From: an uncultured Verrucomicrobiae bacterium
Lineage (GTDB): Bacteria > Verrucomicrobiota > Verrucomicrobiia > Palsa-1439
Assembly: GCA_963712025.1 (NCBI GenBank)
Contig: CAVQGJ010000010.1
Span: forward strand, 262,886 to 326,885
Length of the DNA: 64,000 bases
Reading direction: 5' to 3'
Shown: positions 1-64,000 of the stretch, piece by piece
How positions within the stretch are numbered: the stretch's first letter is position 1
Layout: each line of letters opens with the position of its first letter
Notes under the pieces: model-generated
What the model was told of the DNA's origin: nothing
The model's database searches: none
The model's input: only the letters and a program-made list of their open reading frames with translations
Position numbers and translations under genes: made by a program

Positions 1-556
1 GGCTTCTTCCTTGAGATGGTCCATCACCTCGTCAAACGGCTCGTGGTCGTCCTTGCCGAGCTTCTGCACGCCCATGACGACGTCGCCGTACATCTGCACG
101 AACCGGCGATAGCAATCCCACGCCCAACGCGCGTTGCCTGATTTCTTGGCGAGCACTTCCACCGTCTCGTCGTTCAGACCGAGGTTCAAAATCGTGTCCA
201 TCATGCCGGGCATCGACTCCCGCGCGCCCGACCGCACCGACACCAGCAGCGGGTCCTGGCGGTCGCCGAACTTCTTGCCCGGTGACCGTTTCGAGCTTCG
301 CCAGCGCCGTGTTCACCTGCTCGGTCAACACTTTCGGGTACGACTTCTTGTTCGCGTAATAGTAGGTGCAGACTTCCGTGGTGATCGTGAATCCCGGGGG
401 CACCGGCAACCCGATCCGCGTCATCTCATGCAGGTTCGCGCCTTTGCCGCCGAGCAACGGCTTCTGTCCGCCATTGCCGTCGGCCTTGCCACCACCAAAG
501 AAATAGACGTACTTCGACGACTTCTTGACTGAACTTTTTGACTTCTTCGTAGCCAT
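1..556 (-). CDS. ppdK: Pyruvate, phosphate dikinase, N-terminal part; gene continues beyond the window edge. Reading frame is broken by one extra base near 277-282.
   Basis: N-terminus MATKKSKSS...[45 protein letters not shown] is canonical PPDK. After ...LAKLETVTG the frame is lost; shifting by one base restores [37 protein letters not shown]. Confidence 0.85.
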
Positions 557-4521: not shown

Positions 4522-5763
4522 TCCCGCAATTGGCCGTCGCCAACGACAACGAACTTGTGGCTGGTCAATTCCTCCAGGCCCATCGGGCCTCGGGCGTGGA
4601 TTTTGTCCGTGGAAATCCCAATCTCCGCGCCAAACCCGTATTGTGCGCCGTCAGCCAGGCGCGTGCTGGCGTTCCAGAACACGCTCGAGCTGTCCACTTC
4701 GCGCAGGAATTTTTCGGCGGTCGCCTTGTTGCCCGTGACAATCGCATCGCTGTGGGCCGACCCGTATTTCGTGATGTGGTCGATGGCCTCGTCCACGCCG
4801 TTGACGACGCGCACGGCAAGAATCAGGTCAAGATACTCCGCGTACCAATCGGCTTCGGTCGCCGAACTTGCATTGGACACGAGCTTACGCGTCCGGTCGT
4901 CGCCGCGGAGTTCGACCTTGTTTTCCGCGAGTGCTTTCGCCACACGCGGCAGAAATTTGTCGGCGATCTTGTCGTCGATGAGCAGCGTCTCGATGGCGTT
5001 GCACACGCCGGGCCGCTGGCATTTGGCGTTGATGACGATCTTCTCCGCCATGTCGAAATCGGCGTCACGGTCGACGTACACGTGGCACACGCCCTTGTAG
5101 TGTTTGATGACGGGGATGCGTGATTTTTCCGCCACGGCGCGAATCAATCCCTCCCCGCCGCGCGGGATGCAAAGGTTGATCAGGTCATCGAGTTTCAGTA
5201 ACTCGTCGATAGCGGCGCGGTCCGTCGTCGGGACGACCGTGATGCTGTTCGGCGGCAGCCCGGGCACATTCATCGCCTCGGCGATGGCGAGGTTGCTGTG
5301 AGATCGCCTCCGAACCGCCGCGCAGGATCACCGCGTTGCCGGTCTTGAAACACAGGCACCCGGCGTCGGCGGTCACGTTCGGGCGCGACTCGTAAATGAT
5401 CAGGATCACGCCGATGGGCACGCGCACTTTCCGAATGCGAATCCCGTTCGGACGCGTCCATTCGTTGATGGTTGTCCCCACCGGGTCGGGCAAAGCCGCC
5501 ACTTCGCGGACGCCCTTCGCCATTTCCGCAATGCGTTTGTCGGTAAGCGTCAACCGATCGAGCATCGCCGATGAAAGCCCCGACTTCTTGCCCGCATCGA
5601 GATCCCTCGCGTTGGCCGACTTGATCGCGGCAGCGGATTTTTCGATCCCGTTGGCCATGGCCCGCAGCAGCGCGTTCTTTTTGTCCGCGTCAAACTTCGC
5701 GAGCGCGCGCGAGGCATCCCGCGACCGCTCGGCCAACAATCGTATCTGTTGTTTCAAATCCAT
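4518..5763 (-). CDS. proA: Gamma-glutamyl phosphate reductase; frameshifted by one extra base near 5298-5301.
   Basis: N-part (ORF 5185-5763): [53 protein letters not shown]-part (ORF 4518-5273): [45 protein letters not shown]. Removing one base joins GGSEAI(H)[16 protein letters not shown]. Confidence 0.9.
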
Positions 5764-7750: not shown

Positions 7751-8930
7751 ATGCCTTCTGTCATCTTAAAAAAGGGCCGGGAACATCGCCTCTACGCGGG
7801 CCATAGCTGGGTGTACTCGGGCGAGATTGCCGACATCACCAGCAACCCGAAAGACGGCGACGCCGTCGACATCCGCGACCACAAAGAGCGCTTCATGGGG
7901 CGCGGACTGCTCAACACCCGCTCGCAAATCACCGTCCGCCGGTTCACGACGCAGAAAGAGGAGATCGACAGATCATTCTTCGCCCGCCGCATCGAGGCGG
8001 CGCTGGAATACCGACGCGAAAACACGTCCATTGCCGATGCGGAAGCGTTTCGGCTGGTGTCCACGGAGAGCGACCAGGTGCCCGGACTCATCGTCGACCA
8101 GTACGGCGACCACGTCGTCTTGCAGGCGCTCACGCTCGGCATCGATCAGCGCAAGCAACAGATCATCGAGGTCCTCCGCGAGATCGTTCAGCCGAAGGCC
8201 ATCGTCGAACGGAGCGACGTTCCCAGCCGCAAGCTGGAAGGGTTGGAGGAAACGAAGGGCGTGCTCGTCGGCGAGACCGATGCGGTCGTCCGCGTGCAGT
8301 TCAACCAGTTCTCCATCGAGGTCAACCTGCTCGAGGACCAGAAGACGGGTTTCTTTCTCGACCAGCGCGACAACTACGCCGAGGTCGCGCGCCACTGCGC
8401 GGGCAAACGCGTGCTCGATTGTTTCACCTACCACGGCGGGTTTGCGCTGGCGGCGGCAGTCGGTGACGCCAAGAGCACCGAGGCCGTCGAGATTTCCGAT
8501 CAGGCCGTGGCCCGGGCGCGCAAGAACGCCGAACTCAACGGGCTGACCGGGCAAGATCGAGTTCGTGTGCGCCAACGCGTTCGACGTGTTGAAGAAATAC
8601 GATGTCGAGAAGCGCCAGTACGACGTGATCGTGCTCGATCCGCCGTCGTTCACGCGCACGAAACAGAACGTGGGCGACGCGCTGCGCGGGTACAAGGAAA
8701 TCAACCTGCGCGCGCTGAAGATGCTGCCGCCGGGCGGCCTGCTGGCGACGTTCACCTGCTCGCACCACATCGATGCCGAGCTGTTCAAGTCCGTCGTGCT
8801 CGATGCCGCCGCCGACGCCAAGAAGACGGTGCGTCTCGTGAAAGTGCTCACCCAATCGCCCGACCATCCGATCCTGCCGGCAATACCGGAGACGGAATAT
8901 TTGCGGGGGCTGTTGCTGGAGGTGATGTGA
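7751..8930 (+). CDS. rlmI: 23S rRNA (cytosine-C5) methyltransferase, RlmI-like (PUA + class I SAM MTase); frameshifted by one extra base at about 8547-8551.
   Basis: N-part: ...PGLIVDQYGDHVVLQ..LDCFTYHGGFALAAA..NAELNGLTG. The frame then switches, and ORF 8565-8930 gives (GK)IEFVCANAFDVLKKY..YDVIVLDPPSFTRTKQNVGDALRGYKEINLRALKMLPPGGLLATFTCSHHI. Confidence 0.85.
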
Positions 8931-18647: not shown

Positions 18648-19105
18648 TTTTTTGTCTTGCTCACGAGTTTGATGTCGCCGATGACCATGGATTTGTCGAC
18701 GGCTTTGCACATGTCGTAGATCGTCAGGGCGGCGACGGTGACGGCGGTGAGGGCTTCCATTTCGACGCCCGTTTGCGCCGCGATCTTGGCGGTGGCGGTG
18801 ATCTCAATCCTGCCCGGCTTTACCAGAAGATCGACGTCCACGTGCGTGAGATTCAAGGGATGACAGAGCGGGATCAGGTCGCTGGTGCGTTTGGCGGCCT
18901 GGATGCCGGCGATGCGGGCAGTCTGGAGGACATCGCCTTTGGCGATCTGGTTTTTGGCGATGAGAGCGAGTGTCTCGCGCTTCAAATAGATCCCGCCGCG
19001 CGCCACGGCTTCGCGAAGCTGGACGGGTTTGGCGGAGACATCGACCATCCGCACCTTGCCGCGTTTATCGATGTGAGTAAGGGATTTCATTTTAAGTTTC
19101 ACCAC
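18644..19105 (-). CDS. moaC: Cyclic pyranopterin monophosphate synthase
   Basis: MVDVSAKPVQLREAVARG..TARIAGIQAAKRTSDLIPLCHPLNLTHVDVDL...EALTAVTVAALTIYDMCKAVDK. Confidence 0.88.
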   Translation of the reverse strand: MVKLKMKSLTHIDKRGKVRMVDVSAKPVQLREAVARGGIYLKRETLALIAKNQIAKGDVLQTARIAGIQAAKRTSDLIPLCHPLNLTHVDVDLLVKPGRIEITATAKIAAQTGVEMEALTAVTVAALTIYDMCKAVDKSMVIGDIKLVSKTKK

Positions 19106-19133
19106 AGAGACACAGAGAGCACAGAGAGAGTAT

Positions 19134-20132: not shown

Positions 20133-20239
20133 GCCTGCACCCCACAATACGAGTTGGGGGAACCTATCGCAAGCCCAGACGGGCAAACCTGCTTGCAACG
20201 AGCAAGATCGGGGAGACCTTCGCACAACAAGCAGGCGGG

Positions 20240-20265
20240 TTGACATTGGTCGGCGGGCTTATATC
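20240..20265 (+). promoter_or_regulatory. Possible sigma70-type promoter (TTGACA ... TATATC) for the downstream lipoprotein gene
   Basis: TTGACA at 20240-20245 and TATATC at 20260-20265. The 14-nt spacer is short, and the ATG follows at 20275. Weak. Confidence 0.25.
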
Positions 20266-20274
20266 CTGACGCGT

Positions 20275-21357: not shown

Positions 21358-21437
21358 GGGAGTCTAACCGTTCGCGGTTTCGGGTTCACGGTTGAACGGG
21401 CGGGTGTGAGGCACTATATTCGGCGTCGCCGCAACCC

Positions 21438-22697: not shown

Positions 22698-24035
22698 TTG
22701 AGACCCTGCATGTTCTCCAGAACTACACAAATATTGGCGTGTGCGGCCATCGGCGCCTGTGGATTGGTGCTGTTGGCCGGGCCGGCGCGAGCGGTGACAC
22801 TGACCTTGTGGACGAACAACATTGTCATACCGGCTGGCCGGACGTTTCAGATGCCCATCACAGCATCGGATCCTGACGGAAACCCTCTGAAGTTTGAGGT
22901 GAAGGTCAGCAACAAGAAATTGCAGGCGGAGTTCGCGCCCAATTCGAACCGCAGCTTGTTGATCAGCGTCAGCGGCGTAGACTCGAACAACAACCCGTTC
23001 ACCGGCAGCATGGTTGCTCAACTTTTCGAAGACCTCACCCCACTAACCACTGCCCGGATCATCGATCTCGTGGACAGTAACTTCTACAACGGGCTTCTCT
23101 TTCAGAGAGTGATCAAAGGGTTCGTGGCCCAATGTGGGGGCGCGACAACCAATCTCAATCTGGAATCGGGGGTGCCCCTGAATGATGATTACCAAGCCTC
23201 TCTTATTTACGACGGGTTCGGCCAACTGGGTATGGCCAACCGGGCATCGGCAACAACGTCTCCCAGCATTCATGACTCCAACGACTCACAGTTCTTTATT
23301 ACTGATATGGATGCTTCCATGGCAGACGCGAATAATCAGTTGCCGGGACTCAATTTCGAGCAACCCATCTTTGGGCAACTGACGAGCGGTCTCGACGTGT
23401 TTGCGCAAATCATGTCGACACCCGTGGGGACGAATCCAGATACCGGTGAGATCAGCGCACCGCTGTCGAATGTCGTGATGACTTCCATCAGCGTGATTAC
23501 AAACTCGCAAAATACCGTGTTGCGGTTGACGGCGATTGGGACGAATTTTCTCGGGAAGACTGTCGAAACAAATTCGCTCCCACCAGCAGCCATATCGAAT
23601 TTTCTCGGAACTGTGACGGTCACTGTCAGCGCAGCCAATGCGGCAAAACAGGTGGCGACGCAAACATTGGTGGTCAACGTTGTTACGGACACCGGCTCGT
23701 ATCCGCCGTTTTGGGGGCCACTGCCCAGCAGTGTGACCGTGTCACAGAGTGTGGCGACCGCGTTCATTGTCACGGTGACGAACGTTGATCGAACCTCTAC
23801 AAGTGCCAGCCTCCATGATGCCGCCACCCAGGCAAATCCCACAAACATGATCATCGACCAGACTCCGCACACGAGCTTGCTTACATTCAGTCCCGACGCG
23901 ACCCTCACGGGTATCGTCCATCTGGTCTTCACGGTGACCGACAATCTACATCAGCCCGATATCCATGACCTCGCCTTTCATGTGCTTCCCAGAAGCCCGA
24001 CGCCGACGATGACGATTGTGCCGCTGAATGGATAA
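22698..24035 (+). CDS. Secreted cyclophilin-type peptidyl-prolyl isomerase domain protein with a C-terminal beta-rich extension. It ends at a TAA that is in frame with the next ORF.
   Basis: Signal peptide (ILACAAIGACGLVLLAGPARA). Cyclophilin motifs FQRVIKGFVAQCGG, GQLGMANRA, DSNDSQFFIT and IFGQLTSGLDVFAQI. GC is visibly lower than the flanks. Confidence 0.75.
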   Translation: MRPCMFSRTTQILACAAIGACGLVLLAGPARAVTLTLWTNNIVIPAGRTFQMPITASDPDGNPLKFEVKVSNKKLQAEFAPNSNRSLLISVSGVDSNNNPFTGSMVAQLFEDLTPLTTARIIDLVDSNFYNGLLFQRVIKGFVAQCGGATTNLNLESGVPLNDDYQASLIYDGFGQLGMANRASATTSPSIHDSNDSQFFITDMDASMADANNQLPGLNFEQPIFGQLTSGLDVFAQIMSTPVGTNPDTGEISAPLSNVVMTSISVITNSQNTVLRLTAIGTNFLGKTVETNSLPPAAISNFLGTVTVTVSAANAAKQVATQTLVVNVVTDTGSYPPFWGPLPSSVTVSQSVATAFIVTVTNVDRTSTSASLHDAATQANPTNMIIDQTPHTSLLTFSPDATLTGIVHLVFTVTDNLHQPDIHDLAFHVLPRSPTPTMTIVPLNG

Positions 24036-24038: not shown

Positions 24039-24476
24039 GTGGATGCGGGTACAACGATGCCCAACCGCAGCCGCATCAGCGTGACCGGCACGTTTGCGTT
24101 CAACAGCCAATCCGACCAGACCTTTAGCAGCAACGATGTGATGGAGTTGAACCTGGGAGATCCGTCGAATCCGCTTTCCGTGACCATCACACCAAATCTT
24201 AACTTGAAAGTACGGAATGGCTCGATCAGCGGGAAGGCGCGCCTGTCGACGTCGACATCAAGCAAAGTGAACGCCTCGGCACAGTTCGATATTGTGAAGA
24301 ACACGTTTGCCATATCGGTCCAGGGGTTTGATTTTCCGCAGCCTGGACTTACCAACAACGAGATTCAGGTCGGGGTGTCGATCGGGATCAATTACGGGTC
24401 AGACCTGAGGCCATGGGTGGAGATACGACATGGGGTTTTTGTGCCGCCCGCGCCCCTGGTGACCGGCAATCAGTGA
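24039..24476 (+). CDS. Beta-rich hypothetical protein; same frame as 22698-24035, separated only by TAA + TTC
   Basis: GTG 24039 lies 3 nt after the TAA at 24033-24035 in the identical frame. The sequence (SVTGTFAFNSQSD..VTITPNLNLKV..) continues the S/T/N-rich beta-strand character of the upstream C-terminus. Confidence 0.45.
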   Translation: MDAGTTMPNRSRISVTGTFAFNSQSDQTFSSNDVMELNLGDPSNPLSVTITPNLNLKVRNGSISGKARLSTSTSSKVNASAQFDIVKNTFAISVQGFDFPQPGLTNNEIQVGVSIGINYGSDLRPWVEIRHGVFVPPAPLVTGNQ

Positions 24477-33462: not shown

Positions 33463-34153
33463 ATGGAACTCAAACGATGGGTCAGCGTGGCGATTCGGAT
33501 AGCGGTCGCGCTTATCGTGGGCTTTTTTCTGTTGAGATTCGCTTTTCCGGGCGGGGGCCAAGGGTTTTCTGCGTTGGACAGGTTCTTTCAGATGGCAGTC
33601 GTGATATTCTACGTCCTCATCCTGTTTGGTCTGTTTGGCTGGCCGCTTCTGGGGAGCATCGGCGAGCGGATCGGAAATTCCATTTTCATGCCGAGCGACG
33701 CAAACTTTCAAATCGCGCCCGAATACAGCGTTGCCGAGGCGCAAGCCAAGAAAGGCCGATATCAAGAGGCCATCGACGAATATCGCAAGGTGATCCTCGA
33801 ATCATCCCGACGACATTTATCCGCATTTGCGCATCGCCGAGTTTGCCGCGAAGCAATTGAACGACTTGAAGCTGGCCGAACTCGAACTGCTCTCGGCGCT
33901 TGGAAAAGCCAAGGGGGAAGATTCCACCGCCTTGGCCGCCGGTCGTCTGGCCGATTTCTACCAGATCACGTTGCAGGACCCGGCACGGGCGCTGGATGTG
34001 ATGAAACAATTACGTGAAAAAATTCCGGGCACGAAACAGGCAACGCTGGCGGAACAACGCATCACGGTGCTCGAAACCATCGCGCGCGACGGCGTGCCGT
34101 TGCCAAGAGCGCACGACAAGATCGCCAACCGTCCATCGCGCTTCAAGATGTAG
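33463..34153 (+). CDS. Membrane-anchored TPR-like protein; frameshifted by one extra base near 33806-33808
   Basis: ORF 33463-34017 (TM helices, ...AQAKKGRYQEAIDEYRKVILES) continues in the +1 frame as PDDIYPHLRIAEFAAKQLNDLKLAELELLSALGKAKGED... (ORF 33827-34153). Confidence 0.6.
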
Positions 34154-52777: not shown

Positions 52778-53299
52778 GTGTCACAAAGTCCGCCCGCAGG
52801 CGTGACGGGCGTACCGAGTGGGGTTTTCATGGCTGAGCAACTACAACAATACGTGCCGGTCGGGCTCTTATTGCTGGTCGCAATCGGGTTTGCCACCGCG
52901 ACCATGCTGTCGCCCCTGATTCTCGGCAAGCCGCGCGTCCACGACCCGATCAAGGACAGCGCCTACGAGTGCGGTCTGCCGCCGATGGCCGACGCGCATA
53001 CGCGTTTCAGCGTCAAATTCTACCTCATCGCCATGTTGTTCATCGTGTTCGACATCGAAGTGGTGTTCATGCTCGGGTGGGGCGCGGTGTTCCGCGACAT
53101 GATCAAACCCGTCGCCGAAGGCGGTATCGGCATCAAAATGCTCTTGGGTGCGGTGCTGTTCCTGGGGATTCTTGAAGTCGGCCACATTTACGCCTGGAAA
53201 AAGGGTGCCCTCGACTGGGCCCCGCGCAAGGAACACTTGCCCGAGCCGAAACCTGCCGTGACGAAGGTGGAAAAGAAACCGGAGTTGGTGGCGTCATGA
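52778..53299 (+). CDS. nuoA: NADH-quinone oxidoreductase subunit A
   Basis: [22 protein letters not shown] is the NuoA signature. An alternative start is MAEQL at 52829. Confidence 0.85.
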
Positions 53300-53881
53300 G
53301 CCAACGCCTCGAAACAGGATTCGACCCGAAGGTGGAAGGTCGCGACGTGATCGTCACGAGCGTGGATGCCGCGATTGACTGGGTCCGCAAGAATTCCTGC
53401 TGGCCGATGCCGATGGGACTCGCTTGTTGCGCGATCGAATTGATGGCCGCGGGCGCCAGCCGCTTCGACATCGCGCGGTTCGGCGCGGAAGTGATGCGGT
53501 TCTCGCCGCGTCAGTCCGACCTGATGATCGTGGCCGGCACCTGCGTGTACAAGATGGCCGGCGTGGTCAAGCGCGTGTGGGACCAGATGCCCAATCCGAA
53601 GTGGTGTATTGCGATGGGCGCGTGCGCCAGTTCGGGCGGCATGTATCGCAGTTACGCCGTCGTGCAAGGCGTGGATCATTTTCTGCCCGGTGGATGTCTA
53701 TATCTCCGGCTGCCCGCCGCGACCCGAGGCGCTCCTGGAAGGGTTGATGGCCATCCAGCGCAAGATCGCCCACGAGAAGGCCGTCGTGAATATGAAAACG
53801 GGCAACGGCCCCGGGATTTCCTCGCCCATCAGCGGACCGATCATCGTCCGCGGCGAATACGCGCCGAAGCTCAAGGGTTGA
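53296..53881 (+). CDS. nuoB: NADH-quinone oxidoreductase subunit B; frameshifted at 53686-53690
   Basis: [13 protein letters not shown]...[42 protein letters not shown], then in the +1 frame [26 protein letters not shown]. Confidence 0.88.
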
Positions 53882-53887
53882 CACGCG

Positions 53888-54520
53888 ATGAACCTGCAAG
53901 CGGCCATCGACAGATTGAAGGTGCGGTTCGGGGAAGCGGTTTCCGGTCCCGTCGAATTTCGCGGCGAGACCACGCTCACGGTATCGCGCGACAAGATCGT
54001 CGCCGCCTGCGCGTTCCTCAAGAAGGAAGGCGGCTTCGACATGCTGACGGATCTCTCGGGCGTGGACAATTACGGCGAGGACCCGCGGTACGAGGTCGAC
54101 TACCTGTTGTACTCGCTGGCGCAACATTGCTATTTGCGGTTGAAGGTGCGCGTGTCTGAGGACGACATGGTGGTGGACAGCGTTACCGGCGTGTGGCGGG
54201 GAGCGGACTGGCACGAGCGCGAGGCGTTCGACATGTTCGGCATCCGCTTTCGCGGACACCCGAACCTGAAGCGCATCCTGATGTGGGAAGGCTATCCGCA
54301 TCACCCGTTGCGCAAGGATTTCCCGCTCGCCGGTATCCCGGCCGAACTGCCCGGAAACAGCGGTCAATGCCGACACGGTGCGCACCGCGCCGATGTTGGG
54401 CGGGCCGTTCGTGGCTTCCAGTGGCACGCGCAGTTCGATCCGCCGCGAGCCGCGTCAGTTCGACACGCTCGCGGAGCAACAGGAGAAACTGACGCACCCG
54501 ACGAAGAAGGAATCCGTGTA
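53888..54520 (+). CDS. nuoC: NADH-quinone oxidoreductase subunit C; frameshifted at 54350-54354
   Basis: ...[55 protein letters not shown], then the +1 frame [11 protein letters not shown]... runs to TAG 54518, just before the nuoD ATG at 54525. Confidence 0.85.
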
Positions 54521-54524
54521 GTTC

Positions 54525-55764
54525 ATGACCACGAAGCACGAAATGGAGTTGATCGATTCCGCCGCCCGCGCGCAGCAGGTGATGGAAGAAGAGCTGGCCG
54601 GCGAGAAGATGGTCCTCAACATGGGGCCGCAGCACCCGAGCACGCACGGGGTGTTGCGCATCGTGCTCGAACTCGACGGCGAAGAGATCGTCAACGCCTG
54701 GCCGGATGTCGGTTACCTGCATCGCGGCGACGAGAAGATCGCCGAGAACATGACGTACACGCAGTTCATTCCCGTACACCGACCGCCTCGATTATCTCGC
54801 GCCGCTGGCCAACAACGTCACCTACGCCTACGCCGTCGAGAAACTGCTGGGGATGGATGTGCCGCCGCGCTGCAAATACATTCGCGTCATCTGCGCCGAA
54901 CTCGCCCGCATCAGTTCGCACCTGCTCGGCTTGGGCAGCTTCGGCATGGACGTCGGGGCGATGACCGTGTTCCTCTACACGTTTCGCGAGCGCGAAAAGA
55001 TTTACGACATGGCCGAATGCATCAGCGGCGCGCGGTTCACGACCAGCTACACCCGCATCGGCGGACTGGCGAAGGATATGCCGCCCGAGTTCGTGCCGAT
55101 GCTGCGCAGTTTTCTGAAGGAATTTCCCGCGACCATCGATGAAGTCGACAAACTGCTCACCCGCAACCGGATTTTCTGCGAACGCGCCCGCGGCATCGGT
55201 GTGCTCCCGAAGGAAATCGCGATCGATCTCGGCGTCACGGGCCCGTGCCTGCGCGGATCGGGTGTGGATTGGGACATCCGCAAGGCGCATCCCTACAGCA
55301 GTTATGAGGATTTCGAATTCGAGGTGCCGGTCGGCACGGTCGGGGACAGTTACGACCGCTATCTCGTGCGCATGGAGGAGATGCGGCAGAGCGTGCGCAT
55401 TCTCCAGCAGGCCATCGACAATCTGCCCGATGGCCCGGTGAATTCGCCCGATGCCAAGATTTTGTTGCCGGACAAGGAAGCCGTGCTGACGAAGATGGAG
55501 GAATTGATCCATCACTTCATCAACGTCACCGAAGGCATCAACGCGCCGCCGGGCGAGGTTTATTTCTCCGCGGAGAATCCGAAGGGCGAACTCGGGTTCT
55601 ACATCGTCAGCAAAGGGGGCGGCACGCCGCACCGCTTGAAGATTCGCGCGCCGTCGTTCGTGAACCTGCAGGCGCTGCCCATCATGGCCAAAGGCCACAT
55701 GATGAGCGACATGGTCACCATCCTCGCCAGCCTCGATTTCGTGATGGGAGAGTGTGACCGCTAG
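54525..55764 (+). CDS. nuoD: NADH-quinone oxidoreductase subunit D; frameshifted at 54771-54774
   Basis: [49 protein letters not shown], then +1: [64 protein letters not shown]...[14 protein letters not shown]. Confidence 0.9.
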
Positions 55765-55779
55765 ATTCCCGATTTTTCA

Positions 55780-56283
55780 ATGGCACTGAACGTTCCAACA
55801 GAACTCGAGAAGCACATCGACGAGATCGTCACGCATTACCCGCCGCAGCACAAACGGGCGGCGGTGCTGTGGCTGTTGCATCTCTTGCAGGAACAGTTCG
55901 GCCAACTCGGCAAGGAACAGGTCGAGTGGACGGCGACCAAGCTCGGCCTGCAGCCGATCAACGTGTGGGAGTTGATCACGTTCTACCCGATGTTCACGGC
56001 CAAACCGCGCGGCAAGTTCCACATCAAGGTCTGCCGCACGCTCTCATGCGAACTCTGCGGCTGCGGCGGCATCCTCGAACGATTGCAGAAGAAACTCGGC
56101 GTCAAGCTGGACGAGAACACGAGCGATGGTCTGTTCACGATTTCCACGGTCGAATGTCTGGCGGCCTGCGGCACCGGCCCGGTGATGATGGTCAACGACG
56201 AGTTGTTCGAGAACCTCACGCCCGACAAGGCCGAGGCGATCGTCAACCGGATCAAGACCACGGGCAAACTCGAGCCGCAACCA
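55780..56283 (+). CDS. nuoE: NADH-quinone oxidoreductase subunit E. There is no in-frame stop before nuoF, so the E/F boundary is approximate.
   Basis: Thioredoxin-like [2Fe-2S] motifs: [10 protein letters not shown] and [19 protein letters not shown]. The frame runs straight on through ...[33 protein letters not shown] into NuoF. Confidence 0.8.
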
Positions 56284-57583
56284 TTGCCGCCGGTATTGCC
56301 CGCGCATCCGCTGGAGAAGCGCGTCCTGATGGCCAACATGAGCAAGCCCGGCTACAAGGGCGCGATCGAGGACTACGTTCGCGAGGGCGGCTACAAGGCG
56401 TTGCCGAAAGCGCTCGGCATGAAGCCCGAGGAAATCGTCGCCGAGGTCAAAAACAGCGAGGTTCGCGGACGCGGCGGCGCGGGTTTTCCCTGCGGCATGA
56501 AATGGAGCTTTCTCGCCAAGGGCACCGGCAAGCCGATTTATCTGGTCTGTAACGCCGACGAGTCCGAGCCCGGCACGTTCAAGGACCGTCAGCTTCTCCA
56601 TTACGATCCGCACCAGCTTGATCGAGGGCATCCTCGTCTCGTGCTACGCCGTCGGCGCGCACGCGGCCTACATTTATATTCGTGGCGAGATGCCTTACGG
56701 CGCGAAGATTCTCATCAACGCCATCGAGGAGGCGCGCGCGAAGAAGTTCCTCGGCAAAAATATCCTCGGCAAGGGGTTCGACTGCGAGATTTACGTTCAT
56801 CGCGGCGCGGGCGCGTATATCTGCGGCGAAGAAACGGGTCTCATCGAATCGCTCGAAGGCAAACGCGCCTATCCGCGCATCAAACCGCCGTTCCCGGCGG
56901 TGGTCGGCCTGTTCGGTTGTCCGACCGTGGTGAACAACGTCGAGACGCTGTCGAACATCCCGCATATCATCAACAATGGCGCGGCGTGGTTCAAGGGAAT
57001 GGGCGTGCCCGGCTCGACCGGCACGCGCTTGGTCTGCGTCAGCGGCCCGGTGAAACGGCCCGGCTACTACGAATTCGAGATGGGCAAACTGACGATGCGC
57101 CAACTCATCTATGATTTGTGCGGCGGGCTTCAGGAGGGCCGCCAATTGAAAGGCGTGGTGCCCGGTGGCAGCTCGATGCCCGTGCTCAAAGCCGACCAGA
57201 TTGATGTGGCGCTGGATTTCGAATCGTTGCGCAAAGCCGGCACGATGGCCGGTTCGGGTGGCGTAATCGTGCTCGATGATACGGTCGACATCGTGCAGAG
57301 CACGCTCAATGTCGCGCAGTTTTACGCGCACGAGTCGTGCGGCCAGTGCACGCCGTGCCGCGAAGGCACGCTGTGGATGGAGAAAATGCTCCACCGCATC
57401 AAACACGGCCATGGCCGGCCCGAGGACGTGGATCTGCTCTGGGATGTCGCCGACAACATCGACGGCAAGACGATCTGCCCGCTCGGTGAAGCCGCCGCCT
57501 GGCCCGTGAAAGCCTTCGTCACGAAATACCGCGGCGAGTTCGAGAAGGCGTGCAAGAATGGCAACGGAACGAAGAAGCATTAA
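56284..57583 (+). CDS. nuoF: NADH-quinone oxidoreductase subunit F; frameshifted near 56617-56620. The start is uncertain: TTG 56284/56296 or ATG 56329.
   Basis: [35 protein letters not shown]..., then +1: [23 protein letters not shown]...[26 protein letters not shown]...[12 protein letters not shown]. Confidence 0.88.
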
Positions 57584-59291
57584 GATGCCTGACAACACGA
57601 TTAAACTAACGATCGACGGCAAAGAGGTCGCGGCCCCGAAGGGGATGAACCTGATCGAGGCGGCGAAGCTTGCCGGCATCGAGGTGCCGCACTATTGCTA
57701 TCATCCGAAGTTGGCGGTGGTGGGCAACTGCCGCATGTGCCTCGTCGATGTCGGTATGCCGAAGATGGGCCCGGACAGGAAGCCGGAGATGGGACCCGAC
57801 GGCAAACCCGTGATCATGTTTGGCCCGAAGCTGACCATCGGCTGCAATACGTCCGTGGGCGAGGGCATGGTGGTCCATACGCGTTCGCCGAAAGTGATCA
57901 AGGCGCGCGAGGGCGTGATGGAATTCCTGCTCATCAATCATCCGCTCGATTGCCCGATCTGCGACCAGGCCGGCGAATGCCGCTTGCAGGAGTTCAGCGT
58001 CGACTACGGCAAAGGCCAGAGCCGCTTCGTGGAAGAGAAGGTCCACAAACCGAAGAAGACGGAAATCGGCCCGAAGATCATGCTCGACGACGAACGCTGC
58101 ATCCTTTGCTCGCGGTGCGTCCGCTTCATGAAGGACGTGGCGGGCCAGGATTGCCTCGGGTTCGTGAATCGCGGCAGTTATTCCACGCTGACATGTTACC
58201 CCGGCATGGAACCGAACACGAATTACGATCTCAACATCACCGATATCTGCCCCGTCGGCGCGCTCACGTCGAATGATTTCCGGTTCAAGCAGCGCGTGTG
58301 GTTCCTGAAAGAGACGAAGAGCGTGTGCCCGAATTGCGCCACGGGTTGCAACACCGTCTTGTGGTCGCGGGAAGGCGTCGTGCACCGACAGACGCCGCGC
58401 GACAACGACGCAGTCAATCAATGCTGGATGTGCGACTCGGGCCGGCTGCACTACAAGTTTATCAACGATCCCCGATCGCATTACTCGCGCCCACCGTGAA
58501 GTCGTCGGCGATGGGCGAACGACTCACCTTGACATGGCCTGAGGCGACGCGGCAGATCGCGGAGAGACTCGGGCCGCTGAAGGGCGATGGTTCGGCCATC
58601 GCCGCGATTGGGACCGCGCGCGCGACGACCGAGGAGTTGTTCCTGTTCAACAAACTCGTGCGCGAAGTTCTGGGCGCGGAGTTGGTGGATTGCGTGCCGC
58701 ACACCGGCGAAGGCGATAAATTCCTGCTGAATGCCGACCGCAATCCAAACACGAATGGCGCGAGGCTGACGGGCGTTGCGGGCGAGGCGATGGGCAGCCG
58801 GATTCCGGCCATTGCCGAGGCAATCAAGTCGGGCAAGATCAAGGCGCTGCTCGTTCACGGTGAGAACGTGTCGAAATACGGAATCGCCGAGGACGCGCTC
58901 GCGAAGCTGGATTTGCTGGTGGTCATCGATACCCTGCCGAACAAGGCGACGGAACTGGCGCACTACGTCCTGCCCGGCGCGACCTTCGCCGAAAAGCGCG
59001 GCACGTTCATCAATGCCAAGAACCGCCTGCAACGGTTGAACACGGCGAGTCCCATCACCCGGCATCGCGCGGCCGGAATGGCAGACATTTGCGGCGCTGC
59101 TGAACGAATTGGGCGGCGACGGCGGTTATCTGGCGATTGAAGATGTGTTTGCCGACATGGCGCGGTCGCTTACGCCGCTGGCGGGACTGAATCTTTCCAA
59201 GATTGGCGATCTCGGCGTCGAACTGAAGCCCGCGGCGGAACCAAAAGGTGAGGCGAAGACCGAGGCCGCCGCCGCAGGAGCGAAGGCATGA
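57558..59291 (+). CDS. nuoG: NADH-quinone oxidoreductase subunit G; two frameshifts (58471-58475 and near 59057-59062). Likely start MPDNTIKL at 57585.
   Basis: CYHPKLAVVGNCRMCLVDV, HPLDCPICDQAGECRLQ, CILCSRCVRF, CPVGALTS. Then a -1 shift gives ...IALLAPTVKSSAMGERLTLTWPEATRQIAERL, and a +1 shift gives ...GIARPEWQTFAALLNELGGDGGYLAIEDVF... ending in a TGA that overlaps the nuoH ATG. Confidence 0.88.
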
Positions 59292-60325
59292 TTCCATTGC
59301 TTCTCATTCATCTCATCAAGATTGCCTGTGTCATCGGCGTAATGCTGGGCATTGTGGCGTACACGGTGCTGGCGGAACGCAAGATTTGCGCGTGGATGCA
59401 GGATCGCATCGGGCCAAACCGCGTCGGGCCGTTCGGTCTGTTGCAGCCGCTGGCCGATGGCTTGAAATTCGTTTTCAAGGAGGACGTGCTGCCGCATCAC
59501 GTCAACAAGGTCTATTTCACCTTGGCGCCCATGATTGCCATGATCCCCGCTCTGATCACGATTGCGGTCGTGCCGTGGGGCAGCCAGTTGGTGATTCCCC
59601 GCATTTCGCCCGAGCCGATCCCGTGCGTGATTGCCAACCTGAATGTCGGCATCCTGTTCGTGTTCGCGATTGCCTCGCTGGGGGTGTACGGCATCGTGCT
59701 GGCGGGGTGGTCGAGCAACTCGAAGTATCCGTTCCTCGGCGGCATCCGCTCCAGCGCGCAGATGATTTCCTACGAAGTCTGCCTCGGATTGAGCGTGGTG
59801 CCGGTGTTCATGCAGGTCGGCTCGCTCAATCTCCCGAAGGTGGTCGAATACCAGACGCAGCACACGTGGCTGGGGTTCACCCAGCCGCTGTCGTTTTTCA
59901 TTTTCCTCGTAAGCGCGTTTGCCGAGACCAACCGCCTGCCGTTCGATTTACCCGAGGCGGAACAGGAGCTGGTCGGTGGGTACCACACCGAGTACAGCTC
60001 CATGAAGTTCGCGATGTTCTTCATGGGTGAATACGCCGCGATGTTCGTGGCCTCGGCGCTGATGGCAACGCTGTTTTTCGGCGGTTGGTCGCTGCCGTTC
60101 GCGCCGTTCAACGCGCCCGCGCTAACGCTCGGCGTGGGCCTGGCGCATATCGGCATCTTCCTGGCGAAAGTGTGCTGTTTCCTGTTCTTCTTCATTTGGG
60201 TGCGGTGGACGATCCCGCGATTCCGCTATGACCAACTGATGACGTTGGGATGGAAGATCTTCATCCCGCTGACGCTGTTGAACATTCTGATTTCCGGAGT
60301 CGTGCTGGCGGCGATGACGAAATGA
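59288..60325 (+). CDS. nuoH: NADH-quinone oxidoreductase subunit H
   Basis: LAERKICAWMQDRIGPNRVGPFGLLQPLADGLKF ... GWSSNSKYPFLGGIRSSAQMISYEV ... ETNRLPFDLPEAEQELVGGYHTEYS. Confidence 0.93.
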   Translation: MIPLLLIHLIKIACVIGVMLGIVAYTVLAERKICAWMQDRIGPNRVGPFGLLQPLADGLKFVFKEDVLPHHVNKVYFTLAPMIAMIPALITIAVVPWGSQLVIPRISPEPIPCVIANLNVGILFVFAIASLGVYGIVLAGWSSNSKYPFLGGIRSSAQMISYEVCLGLSVVPVFMQVGSLNLPKVVEYQTQHTWLGFTQPLSFFIFLVSAFAETNRLPFDLPEAEQELVGGYHTEYSSMKFAMFFMGEYAAMFVASALMATLFFGGWSLPFAPFNAPALTLGVGLAHIGIFLAKVCCFLFFFIWVRWTIPRFRYDQLMTLGWKIFIPLTLLNILISGVVLAAMTK

Positions 60326-60897
60326 CCATGCAAGTCAAACGGCCAAAACTGACGATTTGGGAGCGGACGTATCTTCCGCAGATTTTGCACGGGATGTGGC
60401 TGACCCTGTGCCACATCCCGCGGCGGAAGTTCACGCGTCATTATCCGGAGGAGAAACCGCCGCTCTATGGCGCGTATCGCGGCGCGCCGACGCTGGTGAA
60501 GGACCCCGAGGGACGAGTCAAATGCGTTTCGTGCCAATTGTGCGAGTTCGTTTGTCCACCGAAGGCGATCCGCATCACGCCGGGCGCGCGGCCGGATGAC
60601 GTTCCCGACGCCAATGTCGAAAAGGAACCCGAGGATTTCGTCATCGACATGTTGCGCTGCATTTATTGCGGGTACTGCGAGGAAGTGTGTCCCGAAGAGG
60701 CGATCTTCCTGAAGCAGGATTTTGCGATCGCCGGGTACACGCGCGAAGAACTACAGTTTCACAAGGAGAAGTTGCTGGAATTGGGAGGCGTGCAACCGGA
60801 CTCGATTTGGAAATGGAAATTCAAGGGGGCGCCGCCGCTGGATGCGCCGGGTGCAAGTGTGAGAAATCCACAGACGGACGCAGATAAACACCGATGA
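60322..60897 (+). CDS. nuoI: NADH-quinone oxidoreductase subunit I (2x[4Fe-4S])
   Basis: The ATG overlaps the nuoH stop (ATGA). Cluster motifs CVSCQLCEFVCP and CIYCGYCEEVCP. Confidence 0.9.
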   Translation: MTMQVKRPKLTIWERTYLPQILHGMWLTLCHIPRRKFTRHYPEEKPPLYGAYRGAPTLVKDPEGRVKCVSCQLCEFVCPPKAIRITPGARPDDVPDANVEKEPEDFVIDMLRCIYCGYCEEVCPEEAIFLKQDFAIAGYTREELQFHKEKLLELGGVQPDSIWKWKFKGAPPLDAPGASVRNPQTDADKHR

Positions 60898-60929
60898 GTG
60901 TCCGTGTGAATCTGTGGCGTAACTGACCG

Positions 60930-61432
60930 ATGATTGTTCACGACATACTATTCTGGTTTTTCAGCATCGCAATGCTGGTATGCGGGCTGTTGGTGATCGG
61001 CAGTTCGCAATCCCGTCGCCAGCGCGTTGTTTCTGGTGATGCTGTTTGTGTTCCTGGCCGGCCTGTTTGTCCTGCTCGGAGCGTTCTTCATCGCGGCGAT
61101 CCAGGTGCTGGTATATGCGGGCGCGATCATGGTGTTGTTCCTCTTTGTCATCATGCTGCTGGATATCAAGGCCAGCGAGCGCCGCAAGTTCCGGGCGCTC
61201 GGCGTCGTTGGCGGAATCGCGGTGGCCGCGATGTTCGTGTGGGAACTGGAAATCATCCTCTCCCGGCCGCTGACCGCCCGTGGCCGCCGGCGGCGCCGAA
61301 CTGAGCGGCGGTCTGGAGCAGGTCGTCAAACCGCTGTTTGCCAACTACATGTTGCCCTTCGAGGTGACGGCGTTGTTGCTGTTGGTGGCGATGATCGGCG
61401 TGGTTTTGCTTTCCAAGAAGGAACTCAAATGA
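60930..61432 (+). CDS. nuoJ: NADH-quinone oxidoreductase subunit J; two frameshifts (near 61002-61008 and at 61276-61280)
   Basis: MIVHDILFWFFSIAMLVCGLLVIGS, then +1: RNPVASALFLVMLFVFLAGLFVLLGAFFIAAIQVLVYAGAIMVLFLFVIMLL...ILSRPLTA, then +1: VAAGGAELSGGLEQVVKPLFANYMLPFEVTALLLLVAMIGVVLLSKKELK, with a TGA overlapping the nuoK ATG. Confidence 0.85.
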
Positions 61433-61740
61433 CCGGCGGGATCACCCTCAACGATTATCTGCTCGTCAGCGGGTTGCTGTTCGCGCTCGGGATCGCCGGC
61501 GTGATCATCCGTCGCAACGCGCTGGTCATCTACATGGCGCTGGAGATGAACCTCAATGCCGCGAATCTCGCGCTCGTCGCCTTTTCCAAATTCAACAAGC
61601 TGGTCGAGGGCCAGATTCTGGTGTTCTTCATCATCGCCATCGCGGCGGCGGAGGTCGCGGTTGGCTTGGCCATCATCGTGGCGTTGTACCGCCGAAAACA
61701 AACCATCAGCGTGGACCAACTGACAACGATGCGGCTATGA
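61429..61740 (+). CDS. nuoK: NADH-quinone oxidoreductase subunit K
   Basis: MTGGITLNDYLLVSGLLFALGIAGVIIRRNALVIYMALEMNLNAANLALVAFS...AAAEVAVGLAIIVALYR. Confidence 0.92.
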   Translation: MTGGITLNDYLLVSGLLFALGIAGVIIRRNALVIYMALEMNLNAANLALVAFSKFNKLVEGQILVFFIIAIAAAEVAVGLAIIVALYRRKQTISVDQLTTMRL

Positions 61741-63680
61741 ATCACGTGGCCTACATGTACGGCACCGACTGGGGCATGGGCCGTTTTCCCCTCTGCTCGG
61801 TGTGGATCCTTCTGTTCAGCCCGCTGGTCGCCGCCGCGCTGATTACGTTGTTCACGAAAGAGTGGAAGGGATTGAGCGCCGCTTTGTCCATCGGCGCCAT
61901 CTTGATTTCCTTCGCATTATCGCTGCGGTTGTTCCTGTTGTTTGCCCTCAAAGGTATCCAGCACCATCCGCATCCGTTCGAGTGGCTCGTCATCGGCAAT
62001 ACCGTGCGCATCGAGTTCGGGATGACGACCGATGCGCTGGCGCTGTTGATGTTGCTGGTCGTCACCGGCGTGGGGCTGGCGATTCACATCTATTCGCTCG
62101 GCTACATGAAAGGCGACCCCGGCTTCTCGCGGTTCTTCGCGTGCATGTCGTTGTTCACGTTTTCCATGCTCGGGATCGTGATTTCGAGCAACTTCATCCA
62201 GATCTTCATTTTCTGGGAACTGGTCGGCGTGAGCAGTTATCTCCTGATCGGGTTCTGGTTCGAAAAACCCAGCGCCGCCGAGGCGGGCAACAAAGCGTTT
62301 CTCACCACGCGCATCGGCGACGTCGGAATGATGCTGGGGATTCTGTTGCTCTGGTCGCACGCGCACACGTTCGAGTTCTCCGAATTGCAGGCGAAACTGC
62401 CGTCGCTCGATTTATCGATTGGCACGCTGGCGCTGATCGGCGTGTTGATCTTTACCGGCGCGATGGGCAAGAGCGCGCAGGTGCCGTTGCACGTGTGGTT
62501 GCCCGACGCGATGGAAGGCCCGACGCCCGTGAGCGCGCTGATTCATGCCGCGACGATGGTGGCGGCGGGCGTCTACATGCTCTGCCGCGTCTCGTGGCTG
62601 ATTCTGCCGAGCGAAACGGCGTTGTGGTTCATCGCCTGGATCGGCGGAATCACGGCGCTCATGGCGGCGACGATCGCCATCGCCCAGAACGACATCAAAC
62701 GCATCCTCGCCTACTCGACGCTATCGCAACTTGGCTACATGGTGATGGCCGTCGGCCTCGGCGGACCAACGCAGGCGATGTTTCATCTCACGACGCACGC
62801 CTTTTTCAAGGCGCTGTTGTTCCTCGGCGCGGGCAGCGTGATCATCGCGTTGCACCACGAACAGGACATCTGGAAAATGGGCGGGCTGTGGAAGAAGACG
62901 CCGATCACATTTTGGACGTTCCTCATCGGCACGCTGGCGTTGGCGGGTGTGCCGCCGTTGAGCGGGTTTTACAGCAAGGACGAGATCCTGCTGCTGGCGT
63001 TCGAGCGCAATTCGTTTCTCTTTATCATGGCCGTCGTGACGGCGTTTCTGACCGCCTACTACATGGGGCGGGAGGTGTTCGTGGTGTTCTTCGGCAAACC
63101 GCGCTGGGAGCATTCGGTGGCGCAAGCCTCTGTGCTTGCGGGGCATGAACGACCGCAGGCAGGGACGCCTGCGCCACAAATACACGAGTCGCCGTGGGTG
63201 ATGACGCTGCCGCTGGTGTTCCTGGCGGCGTTCTCGATCATCGCCGGTTGGTACAGCAAAGTCCCTAATTTCCTCGGACCGCCGCATGAAGCCGAGCGCC
63301 ATTCCGTGTTGCTGACGGGCGGCCTGATTCTCATGCCGTTGTTCGGGTTCCTGGTCGCGGCGAAGATCTATTGGAAGGCTGAACCCAGCGACGCGCCCGT
63401 GAAAGCTGCGCTCGGCAAGCTGTGGACGCTGGTCGAGAACAAATACTATTTCGACGAGTTGTATCAGTGGGTCATTAAGTACGTGCAGGGAACGATTGCG
63501 ACGGTGTGTGATGTGTTCGACCGCTGGATACTCCAGCGGCTCGGTATCGGCGGCCTGTCGGTCAGCACGGGCCTGCTCGGGCGCACCGTGCGCCTCCTGC
63601 AAACCGGTAGCATCTCCGGCTACGCCTTCCTCATCGGCCTTGGCGTGACGGTGATCATTTATTACGCGGCGGTGAGATGA
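61737..63680 (+). CDS. nuoL: NADH-quinone oxidoreductase subunit L
   Basis: The ATG overlaps the nuoK stop. Antiporter-like motifs WLPDAMEGPTPVSALIHAATMVAAGVY, and a long C-terminal helix region. Confidence 0.92.
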   Translation: MNHVAYMYGTDWGMGRFPLCSVWILLFSPLVAAALITLFTKEWKGLSAALSIGAILISFALSLRLFLLFALKGIQHHPHPFEWLVIGNTVRIEFGMTTDALALLMLLVVTGVGLAIHIYSLGYMKGDPGFSRFFACMSLFTFSMLGIVISSNFIQIFIFWELVGVSSYLLIGFWFEKPSAAEAGNKAFLTTRIGDVGMMLGILLLWSHAHTFEFSELQAKLPSLDLSIGTLALIGVLIFTGAMGKSAQVPLHVWLPDAMEGPTPVSALIHAATMVAAGVYMLCRVSWLILPSETALWFIAWIGGITALMAATIAIAQNDIKRILAYSTLSQLGYMVMAVGLGGPTQAMFHLTTHAFFKALLFLGAGSVIIALHHEQDIWKMGGLWKKTPITFWTFLIGTLALAGVPPLSGFYSKDEILLLAFERNSFLFIMAVVTAFLTAYYMGREVFVVFFGKPRWEHSVAQASVLAGHERPQAGTPAPQIHESPWVMTLPLVFLAAFSIIAGWYSKVPNFLGPPHEAERHSVLLTGGLILMPLFGFLVAAKIYWKAEPSDAPVKAALGKLWTLVENKYYFDELYQWVIKYVQGTIATVCDVFDRWILQRLGIGGLSVSTGLLGRTVRLLQTGSISGYAFLIGLGVTVIIYYAAVR

Positions 63681-63710
63681 AGATGAAATTAGCGAGAGAA
63701 GAGGTCAAAA

Positions 63711-63739
63711 ACTTGAGGTGCCAATTTGGCACCTCAAGT
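63711..63739. repeat. Perfect 29-bp palindrome immediately downstream of nuoL
   Basis: ACTTGAGGTGCCAA-t-TTGGCACCTCAAGT: 14-bp arms around a single central T. No U-tract follows. Confidence 0.6.
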
Positions 63740-63856
63740 GTGAGGTCGCGATTTATGAGATCAAAGCATCATCCATCGGCTCGCCTCTTCGTCTGTCATT
63801 CTGAGCGCAGCGAAGAATCTCTGTCGTTAAGGCGAGCAGAAGGGGGTCACGCGCTA

Positions 63857-64000
63857 TGAAGGCTTATAGATGTCCGCTTTGCGGAAGCAAACTGCCAAAG
63901 AATCAGTTTGAGCGCGTGATGCACATCGAGGAGGAGAAAGAAAAGGCACGGAAGCAGGAGGTGGCCAAGACGGAGAAACTACTTCGTCAGGCGCGGGATG
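63857..64000 (+). CDS. N-terminal fragment of a zinc-ribbon + coiled-coil protein (DUF2130-like); runs off the window end
   Basis: MKAYRCPLCGSKLPKNQFERVMHIEEEKEKARKQEVAKTEKLLRQARD: CPxCG zinc ribbon followed by a charged coiled-coil. The local GC is lower than nuoL. Confidence 0.4.

Follow-up and report, generated by a model that had tools for sequence, protein, structure and literature searches.

Diaphorases of the HoxF and FdsB type carry a NuoE-like domain (thioredoxin-like, 2Fe-2S) followed by a NuoF-like one (51 kDa, FMN/NADH). The canonical 14-subunit complex I (nuoA-N or nqo1-14) comprises an N-module (NuoE, NuoF, and NuoG), a Q-module (NuoB, NuoC, NuoD, and NuoI), and membrane subunits that include NuoA, NuoH, NuoJ, NuoK, and NuoL. 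Fusions of its subunits, NuoCD and NuoBCD, have been mapped onto complex I clades (Spero et al. 2015, PMC4453560). Frameshift-causing indels have been documented in Nanopore consensus sequences, especially in bins below ~40x coverage (PMC9262707).

Here, we analyzed a window of 64,000 nucleotides from an uncultured Verrucomicrobiae bacterium, in which a nuo cluster has the gene order and the ATGA-coupled junctions of the canonical operon and all of the subunits listed above. As given, the sequence breaks the frames of nuoB, nuoC, nuoD, nuoEF, nuoG, and nuoJ. Comparison with related sequences indicates that long-read metagenome assembly most likely introduced the nine breaks, each of them a single extra base (we put the probability of this reading at about 0.88). 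The locus is very probably an ordinary operon that encodes a functional proton-pumping NADH:quinone oxidoreductase in a peat or soil member of the Verrucomicrobiia, and its breaks would not be biological.

Organization of the nuo operon

The cluster is contiguous on the plus strand from 52829 to 63680, with the order A-B-C-D-EF-G-H-I-J-K-L (Table 1), and a preliminary description of the sequence had given the order from nuoA to nuoL correctly. The tight couplings that it reported for G/H (59288), H/I (60322), J/K (61429), and K/L (61737) are all ATGA overlaps of start and stop codons, and a further overlap of this kind is present at A/B (53296). The frame of nuoA stays open upstream of its ATG as far as a GTG (52778), and relatives show the same extension. 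After correction, the products of nuoB, C, D, E, F, H, I, K, and L scored above the cutoffs of their NCBIfam models (for example, NuoB with 300.7 bits against a cutoff of 281 for NF011390, and NuoD with 571.9 bits for TIGR01962); NuoG, with 447 bits for TIGR01973 (cutoff, 470), and NuoJ, with 125 against an equivalog cutoff of 154, were slightly below. The presence of the N-module sets the locus apart from the 11-subunit complex I-like enzymes. Unlike canonical complex I, it has a single polypeptide for NuoE and NuoF and a short NuoG (567 amino acids); nuoM and nuoN lie outside the window.

Table 1. Features of the nuo operon and of the other frameshifted genes in the window
Feature	Position	Strand	Remarks
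Pyruvate phosphate dikinase (PPDK), +1 frameshift	273..296	-	Pfam PPDK_N split: 2-52 in one frame, 94-139 in the next
proA (gamma-glutamyl phosphate reductase), +1 frameshift	5300..5317	-	Pfam Aldedh split: 29-161 / 167-304
rlmI-like methyltransferase, +1 frameshift	8542..8559	+	Pfam PF10672 split: 75-170 / 177-248
TPR membrane protein, probable +1 frameshift	33794..33810	+	Evidence limited to coding potential and continuity of the sequence
nuoA	52829..53299	+	Intact; ATG at 52829
nuoB	53296..53881	+	1 extra base, ~53689 (CTGCCC[G]GTGG); corrected, 194 aa
nuoC	53888..54521	+	1 extra base, ~54350 (CTG[C]CCGGAA); corrected, 210 aa
nuoD	54525..55764	+	1 extra base, ~54771-54774 (ATTCCCGTAC); corrected, 412 aa
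nuoEF	55780..57583	+	1 extra base in F part, ~56618-56620 (CAGCTTGATC); corrected, 600 aa
nuoG	57585..59291	+	3 extra bases, ~58471-58474, 58484, and 59049; corrected, 567 aa; short-type NuoG
nuoH	59288..60325	+	Intact, 345 aa
nuoI	60322..60897	+	Intact, 191 aa
nuoJ	60930..61432	+	2 extra bases, ~61004 (GGCAG[T]TCGC) and ~61274 (CTGA[C]CGCCC); corrected, 166 aa
nuoK	61429..61740	+	Intact, 103 aa
nuoL	61737..63680	+	Intact, 647 aa
Post-nuoL region	63681..64000	+	Perfect hairpin, ~63704-63733; palindromic repeat arm, 63792-63830; small ORF start, 63857

All frameshifts are single-base insertions

Eight frameshifts had been counted in the operon, but when they were called by alignment with 18 to 19 related assemblies, nine were found: one each in nuoB, nuoC, nuoD, and nuoEF, three in nuoG, and two in nuoJ. 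The six genes previously named as broken are indeed those affected, and the number given for nuoJ was right, but nuoG has three breaks instead of two; nuoA, the E part of nuoEF, nuoH, nuoI, nuoK, and nuoL are free of breaks, as had been stated. Relative to the 18 to 19 assemblies, every frameshift in the operon is the insertion of a single base, and no frameshifting deletion was found in the operon in this alignment. Deletion of the nine bases yielded full-length genes without internal stops, and the corrected nuo frames contain no nonsense codons. In nuoG, the frame runs 2 -> 0 -> 1 -> 2, and the three insertions add up to three bases, by which the original frame is regained. The sequence contexts of the insertions are heterogeneous (CCCGG, CGAGTC, ATTACTCG, and others), many are outside long homopolymers, and several do not extend a homopolymer at all.

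The window contains further breaks in the genes for PPDK, ProA, an rlmI-like methyltransferase, and, probably, a TPR membrane protein, for which Pfam gave no confirmation. The PPDK frameshift is of the same error class as the breaks in the operon. All 13 frameshifts of the window (one of them only probable) are +1, for which the chance would be 2^-13 under equal rates of insertion and deletion, and the operon, with 17% of the length of the window, contains 9 of the 13 (binomial P = 4.4e-5). The claim that the density of frameshifts exceeds that of the flanks is thus confirmed. Two conserved genes of the same window, those for the H+-pyrophosphatase and FtsK, have no breaks.

Selection on the operon is not relaxed

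On the branch leading to the window, we counted 132 synonymous and 28 nonsynonymous private changes, corresponding to a pN/pS of 0.066. Downstream of the breaks, there were 39 synonymous and 7 nonsynonymous changes (pN/pS, 0.058); the ratio was 0.028 upstream of the breaks and 0.092 in the intact genes. In two relatives with intact operons, L003 and L004, pN/pS was 0.079 and 0.055, respectively. Relaxed selection downstream of the breaks was therefore not seen (0.058 versus 0.055 to 0.079 in relatives).

Comparison with related assemblies

Most of the related assemblies, among them those clearly derived from short reads, were without any private frameshifting indel in these alignments, and the few indels that they do show are read as spacer differences common to relatives. 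L012 has 5 private frameshifting indels. In the error-rich Nanopore MAG L069, we counted 36 (20 of them +1, 5 of them -1), all limited to nuoA-L, whereas the flanks of its operon are clean. The extra base in nuoD is present in L069 in identical form and in the same alignment column. Clean operons are, however, found in L004, L009, and L048, which are likewise long-read MAGs from this lineage, and long reads alone thus do not account for the breaks. No sequence of the same strain was found in genome and metagenome contig collections, in which the closest sequences are ~92 to 94% identical in the operon; exact copies of the window proteins are all on one NCBI/ENA contig of 808,842 bp without protein accessions.

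Eight of the nine insertions can be read as two bases that represent both alleles of the site in relatives (expected fraction if random, 0.32; P = 7.6e-4), and the same tandem-allele pattern was found for 13 of the 20 +1 indels of L069 (P = 0.005), in a test that was made post hoc. The most likely origin of the extra bases, we infer, is a mixing of haplotypes: reads of co-occurring close relatives, with an identity of ~90% or more in the operon, would have been mixed during consensus building or polishing, and where the haplotypes differ at a site, the two alleles would have been entered one after the other in tandem, with the gain of one base. Such mixing would also account for the local hot spot in the operon. 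The errors resemble the indels usual in Nanopore MAGs in that they affect single bases and fragment gene calls, but differ from them in being insertions only, in their clustering in a single conserved operon, and in their position at sites that vary among relatives. The proposed mixing is weakened by the post hoc nature of the pattern test and by its failure to explain the clean H+-pyrophosphatase and ftsK genes. Extension of homopolymers is the textbook error of Nanopore sequencing, and the several insertions that are not of this type weaken the reading as an artifact in general.

Other explanations for the extra bases

The extra bases might also be an artifact of another cause, namely, low local depth or a basecaller that errs systematically in particular contexts or where bases are modified, which we consider possible but rather unlikely. 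Two of the insertion sites are within CCCGG and two adjoin GATC, the same base was added to the context ATTCCCGTAC in each of two independent assemblies, and the persistence of indels in Nanopore bins of low coverage is documented (PMC9262707). However, errors caused by context or methylation would be expected at all copies of a motif across the 64 kb and not within ~8 kb, and low depth should also add substitutions and deletions, but there is neither an excess of nonsynonymous changes nor any deletion. Furthermore, neither of the two predicts an enrichment of insertions at sites polymorphic among relatives.

The preliminary description had left open whether the locus is an error hot spot or a decaying redundant copy of complex I, and the data favor the former. 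A genuine and very recent pseudogenization, in which complex I has just been inactivated, perhaps as redundant to a second nuo, ndh-2, or nqr, would be in line with the concentration of the frameshifts in the operon, and no same-strain sequence that contradicts it was found. Nevertheless, it is highly improbable. Selection is unrelaxed (pN/pS after the breaks is as in intact relatives) and nonsense codons are absent; each of nine separate inactivating events would need to postdate practically all neutral substitutions. Bacterial gene decay is deletion biased, but instead of a mixed spectrum of lesions, only +1 insertions and no deletions are present. Moreover, the same class of +1 insertion hit the genes for PPDK, ProA, and the rRNA methyltransferase, the identical extra base occurs in L069, and the insertion sites are polymorphic among relatives. 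We likewise give little room to the view that all thirteen +1 insertions are real, either as an insertion-biased burst of mutations that has just disabled complex I and several housekeeping genes or as insertions tolerated by recoding; its probability is very small. Programmed recoding, in which +1 ribosomal frameshifting or slippage during transcription compensates for real extra bases so that full-length subunits are still made, would need the perfectly preserved downstream frames that are observed, but it can practically be dismissed, as the sites have neither a slippery motif nor a poly-A/T run in common and no zero-frame stop close by, the frames as given continue for tens to hundreds of codons, the shift sites are not conserved among the 18 to 19 relatives (the nuoD base of L069 is the one match), and we know of no precedent in free-living bacteria for nine recoding sites in one operon plus four elsewhere.

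If the sequence were taken at face value, complex I would be miscalled as a cluster of pseudogenes, with a wrong metabolic inference as the result, and annotation would yield mis-annotated fragments and chimeric ORFs. An example of the latter is the apparent ORF of 899 amino acids at 7751-10450, which conceals the frameshift of the rlmI-like gene and reads through into the gene for an M32 carboxypeptidase. The signature found in two independent MAGs, that is, +1 insertions only, which cluster in a conserved operon and fall on sites variable among relatives, may aid in flagging and repairing errors in long-read MAGs from communities rich in close relatives.

The NuoE-NuoF fusion

The reading frame of nuoE had been described as continuing into nuoF without a stop, and this proved correct. 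NuoE corresponds to residues ~1 to 165 of the nuoEF product and is followed by a linker of 24 residues and then by NuoF. The fused protein passes the curated models for both subunits, TIGR01958 for NuoE (residues 12 to 158) and TIGR01959 for NuoF (residues 193 to 589). The domains PF01257 (NuoE) and PF01512 (NuoF) are found together in at least 120 homologues, nearly all of which have 555 to 611 amino acids, mostly with 95 to 100% query coverage. In the orthologous operons, with which a comparison had been suggested, nuoE and nuoF are fused as well: the linker is conserved and the frame is continuous in 17 of 19 related DNA loci, and the two exceptions are the frameshifted L069 and L007, which has an extraction offset. 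Of the two possibilities raised before, a genuine NuoEF fusion or a lost stop, the homologues, the conserved linker, and the match to both models speak for the fusion and against the lost stop. On this sequence evidence, the fusion is genuine and normal for the lineage.

Like NuoCD and NuoBCD, it joins adjacent genes of the operon in one ORF as a lineage trait, but the fused pair is E-F. This fusion is not mentioned in the complex I survey (PMC4453560), and a search of open-access full texts found an E-F fusion reported only for a ciliate hydrogenase. It is, however, already abundant in sequence databases, where it is labeled simply NuoF, and it is structurally unsurprising. The architecture of NuoEF would be that of the HoxF/FdsB-type diaphorases, and the models for HoxE and the formate dehydrogenase gamma subunit match the E part weakly. 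In contrast to those diaphorases, nuoEF lies between nuoD and nuoG in a full nuo operon, and it is the NuoF and NuoE equivalogs, rather than the Hox or Fds models, that match its product best.

The region downstream of nuoL

The operon had been called complete, which holds as far as nuoL; nuoM and nuoN are absent from the last 320 bases and lie beyond the window. In relatives, they come after nuoL. In the 320 bases 3' of nuoL, no nuoM was found, and the small ORF present there is unrelated to it. The palindromic repeat in this region recurs in relatives, and the segment resembles the intergenic cassettes that separate nuoL from nuoM in these genomes. Within nuoL, 54 nt (18 amino acids; ~63105-63176) that are private to the window are inserted in frame, in a loop whose length is also variable among relatives. 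In the related genomes, several nuo spacers harbor small unrelated genes.

An ordinary nuo operon with nine extra bases

The window carries the complex I genes in the order nuoA, B, C, D, E/F, G, H, I, J, K and L at 52778-63680 (+), as the preliminary description had it, and ATGA overlaps are indeed present at A/B, G/H, H/I, J/K and K/L, in keeping with the tight start/stop couplings it reported. It had also called the operon complete, which holds through nuoL but not beyond: the 320 bases past the nuoL stop codon are not nuoM and comprise a perfect hairpin, one repeat arm and the start of a small ORF. Since nuoM and nuoN follow nuoL in relatives, sometimes after a small inserted gene, the operon is cut by the window end.

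Related loci were sought in species-representative genomes and metagenome contigs with NuoEF, rebuilt across its frame break, as the query. The nearest ones were ~92-94% identical to the window within the operon; the same strain was not found with this query among 185,579 species-representative genomes and the JGI metagenome contigs. Frameshifts were mapped in MAFFT alignments, first with 4 and then with 18-19 relatives, and each nuo frame break turned out to be one base unique to the window. The frameshifts described before were present, but by this alignment they number nine and not eight; two of the three in nuoG are 10-13 bases apart. When the nine bases were taken out, nuo genes of normal length with unbroken frames were obtained, whose products scored above the cut-offs of the curated models for NuoB, C, D, E, F, H, I, K and L and just under those for NuoG and NuoJ. 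Compared with relatives, the window also has an 11-nt deletion in the nuoI-J spacer and a private 54-nt (18-aa) in-frame insertion in a variable NuoL loop, 63105-63176 (+) (...GKPRWEHSVAQASVLAGHERPQAGTPAPQIHESP...), both of which are harmless. Different insertions of 42 and 23 nt are found in two related loci (L012 and L084) in the same piece of the alignment, probably in the same NuoL loop.

Frameshifts elsewhere in the window were searched for with a codon-usage Viterbi scan followed by reading of the translations, a census that gave three confirmed and one probable case and from which breaks in genes of atypical codon usage may escape. Boundaries flagged by the scan at moaA/moaC/mog, mntH/uspA and a phnP-like gene proved on reading to be ordinary gene junctions. 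An apparent 899-aa ORF at 7751-10450 (+) is an artefactual read-through: after a frameshift at ~8550 in the gene of an rlmI-like PUA/SAM methyltransferase, the wrong frame runs on without a stop codon into the neighboring M32 carboxypeptidase gene.

Positions of frameshifts, palindromic elements and spacer genes in the window and in related loci (L-numbers)
Feature	Sequence	Position	Strand	Evidence
nuoB extra base	window	~53689	+	MAFFT alignment
nuoC extra base	window	~54350	+	MAFFT alignment
nuoD extra base	window	~54771-54774	+	MAFFT alignment
nuoEF extra base	window	~56618-56620	+	MAFFT alignment
nuoG extra bases (n = 3)	window	~58471-58474, 58484, 59049	+	MAFFT alignment
nuoJ extra bases (n = 2)	window	~61004, 61274	+	MAFFT alignment
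PPDK frameshift, +1	window	~273-296		Pfam profile split over two frames
proA frameshift, +1	window	~5300-5317		Pfam profile split over two frames
rlmI-like methyltransferase frameshift, +1	window	~8542-8559		Pfam profile split over two frames
TPR protein frameshift (probable), +1	window	~33800		scan and translation reading
Hairpin	window	63704-63733
Repeat arm, directly 3' of nuoL	window	63792-63830
Palindromic element	L005	12045-12140
Palindromic element arms	L002	19008/20048	+/-
Palindromic element arms	L010	17951/18901	+/-
Palindromic element arms	L012	19256/20113	+/-
Palindromic element arms	L025	12039/12998	+/-
Spacer genes	L003	9623-9952 and 11724-12341
Spacer genes	L004	11801-12505 and 18407-19069

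The frameshift cluster is most probably an artefact

In most of the related assemblies, clearly short-read ones included, the same alignments revealed no private frameshifting indel, and the few indels that they do show are read as spacer differences common to relatives. A total of 36 private frameshifting indels, 20 of them +1 and 5 of them -1, were counted in the Nanopore-derived MAG MFD01689.bin.2.73 (L069) and five in another, L012; three other MAGs of the MFD series (L004, L009 and L048), apparently long-read, have a clean operon. The extra base in nuoD stands in the identical alignment column in L069 and in the window (ATTCCCGTAC), although the two genomes are only ~78% identical, and it is very unlikely that it arose from independent real mutations. 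Moreover, in 8 of the 9 window insertions the added base and its neighbor make up a pair, each member of which occurs in relatives as an allele at that one position, such as CC[C][G] in the window versus CCC or CCG in relatives. For a random insertion the chance of this is 32% (P = 7.6e-4 for the window); in L069, 13 of 20 insertions have this form (P = 0.005). The closest loci all belong to Verrucomicrobiia; they stem from MAGs or contigs of peat, bog and soil origin. Seven of 10 intact window proteins were matched exactly, each on one 808,842-bp NCBI/ENA contig that has no protein accession, and this length suggests a long-read assembly for such a habitat. Frameshift-causing indels have been reported in such assemblies, notably in bins below ~40x coverage (PMC9262707).

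The local excess of indels noted earlier was confirmed: the operon makes up 17% of the window but has 9 of the 13 frameshifts (P = 4.4e-5), and a uniform error rate is thereby rejected. In L069, frame changes are dense over nuoA-L (6618-18591) and absent from nuoM and nuoN (18636-21605) and from the upstream genes, so errors crowd into this operon in another, independent assembly too. Homopolymer slippage is rejected as the sole cause, since several insertions do not lengthen a homopolymer (CGA[G]TCC, ATTA[C]TCG). Our best guess is that the operon would be conserved enough among co-occurring relatives for their reads to be recruited during consensus building, and that both alleles may then be written in tandem at sites where the haplotypes differ, a mechanism supported by the tandem-allele pattern. 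Frameshifts per gene were not related to per-gene conservation (pS values), and conserved genes outside the operon, such as those for the H+-pyrophosphatase and ftsK, are clean, which this tentative mechanism does not explain. A technical artefact of another origin, in read depth or base modification, is a less likely alternative.

The preliminary description had weighed a decaying copy of the operon against an error hot spot. All 13 frameshifts in the window (9 nuo, 4 elsewhere) are +1, with a chance of 2^-13 if both directions are equiprobable; natural gene decay in bacteria is deletion-biased. Codon changes private to the window branch comprise 132 synonymous and 28 nonsynonymous ones (pN/pS 0.066), and 3' of the frame breaks, in the corrected frame, 39 and 7 (pN/pS 0.058), compared with pN/pS values of 0.079 and 0.055 in two intact relatives (L003 and L004). 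By this measure there is no relaxed selection in the window operon, and no nonsense codons were found in it. A real, very recent pseudogenisation would need nine hits in one operon plus those in PPDK, proA and the rRNA methyltransferase, every one of them +1 and too recent for relaxed selection to be detectable, and we consider it highly improbable. Programmed recoding was dismissed, for no motif is common to the sites and none of them occurs in a relative. Direction, selection, comparison across assemblies, recurrence, placement and provenance thus argue for an artefact and not for decay: with a probability of about 0.88, the locus is an ordinary complex I operon whose NuoEF fusion is typical of the lineage and whose sequence contains insertion errors, and the frameshift cluster is most probably non-biological.

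NuoE and NuoF are fused

That NuoE runs into NuoF had been put down to either a genuine fusion or a lost stop codon; homologues and related DNA loci both bear out the former. The repaired NuoEF has 600 aa, for which a mass of ~66 kDa is estimated, and at least 120 homologues are listed, nearly all of 555-611 aa, most of which span 95-100% of the query with PF01257 (NuoE) and PF01512 (NuoF). Besides those from Verrucomicrobiota, there are homologues in Latescibacteria and Handelsmanbacteria MAGs. The check proposed earlier, whether orthologous operons share the fusion, gave a conserved linker and a continuous frame in 17 of 19 related loci; of the other two, L069 is frameshifted and the segment extracted from L007 is offset. 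Judged from these sequences, the fusion is real. A survey of complex I (PMC4453560) gives NuoCD and NuoBCD fusions and none of E with F, and a full-text literature search for "NuoE-NuoF fusion" matched only a ciliate hydrogenase. Rare in the literature and frequent among homologues, the fusion is little discussed yet plainly common, labeled NuoF in databases.

Palindromic element, spacer genes and other observations

A conserved palindromic element of ~90 nt, with arms TGTCATTCTGAGCG[A/C]AGCGAAGAATCTC[A/T]GTCGTT ... AACGACAGAGACCCTTCGCTGCGCTCAGGGTGACA, was found in 26 of 159 related loci. Where it stands alone, the element folds into a long hairpin (DNA fold, -28 kcal/mol; z = -4.5). A comparison with Rfam gave no family, only sub-threshold microRNA-hairpin look-alikes. 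Several loci have two inverted arms 0.9-1.1 kb apart that enclose a small unrelated gene. Small unrelated genes also lie inside the nuo spacers D|EF, EF|G, I|J and L|M of relatives, among them GxxExxY-like, ORF6N-domain and prepilin-type genes, and likewise on the contig of the best protein match (P0001). The window spacers nuoD|EF, nuoEF|G and nuoI|J have no inserted genes; one spacer gene is probably present 3' of nuoL, as an ORF that starts at 63857 and is cut by the window end. Together, the spacer genes look like a mobile cassette system aimed at operon spacers.

Two same-frame ORFs at 22698-24035 and 24039-24476 (+), with one stop codon between them, code for a secreted protein, part of which is cyclophilin-like; the interruption could be an in-frame stop codon, a substitution error or simply the border of two neighboring genes. 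Beside the PPDK gene, 621-1244 (-) encodes a protein whose N terminus is TIR-like by eye (...FFSYRHLDNKNDGDYL...).
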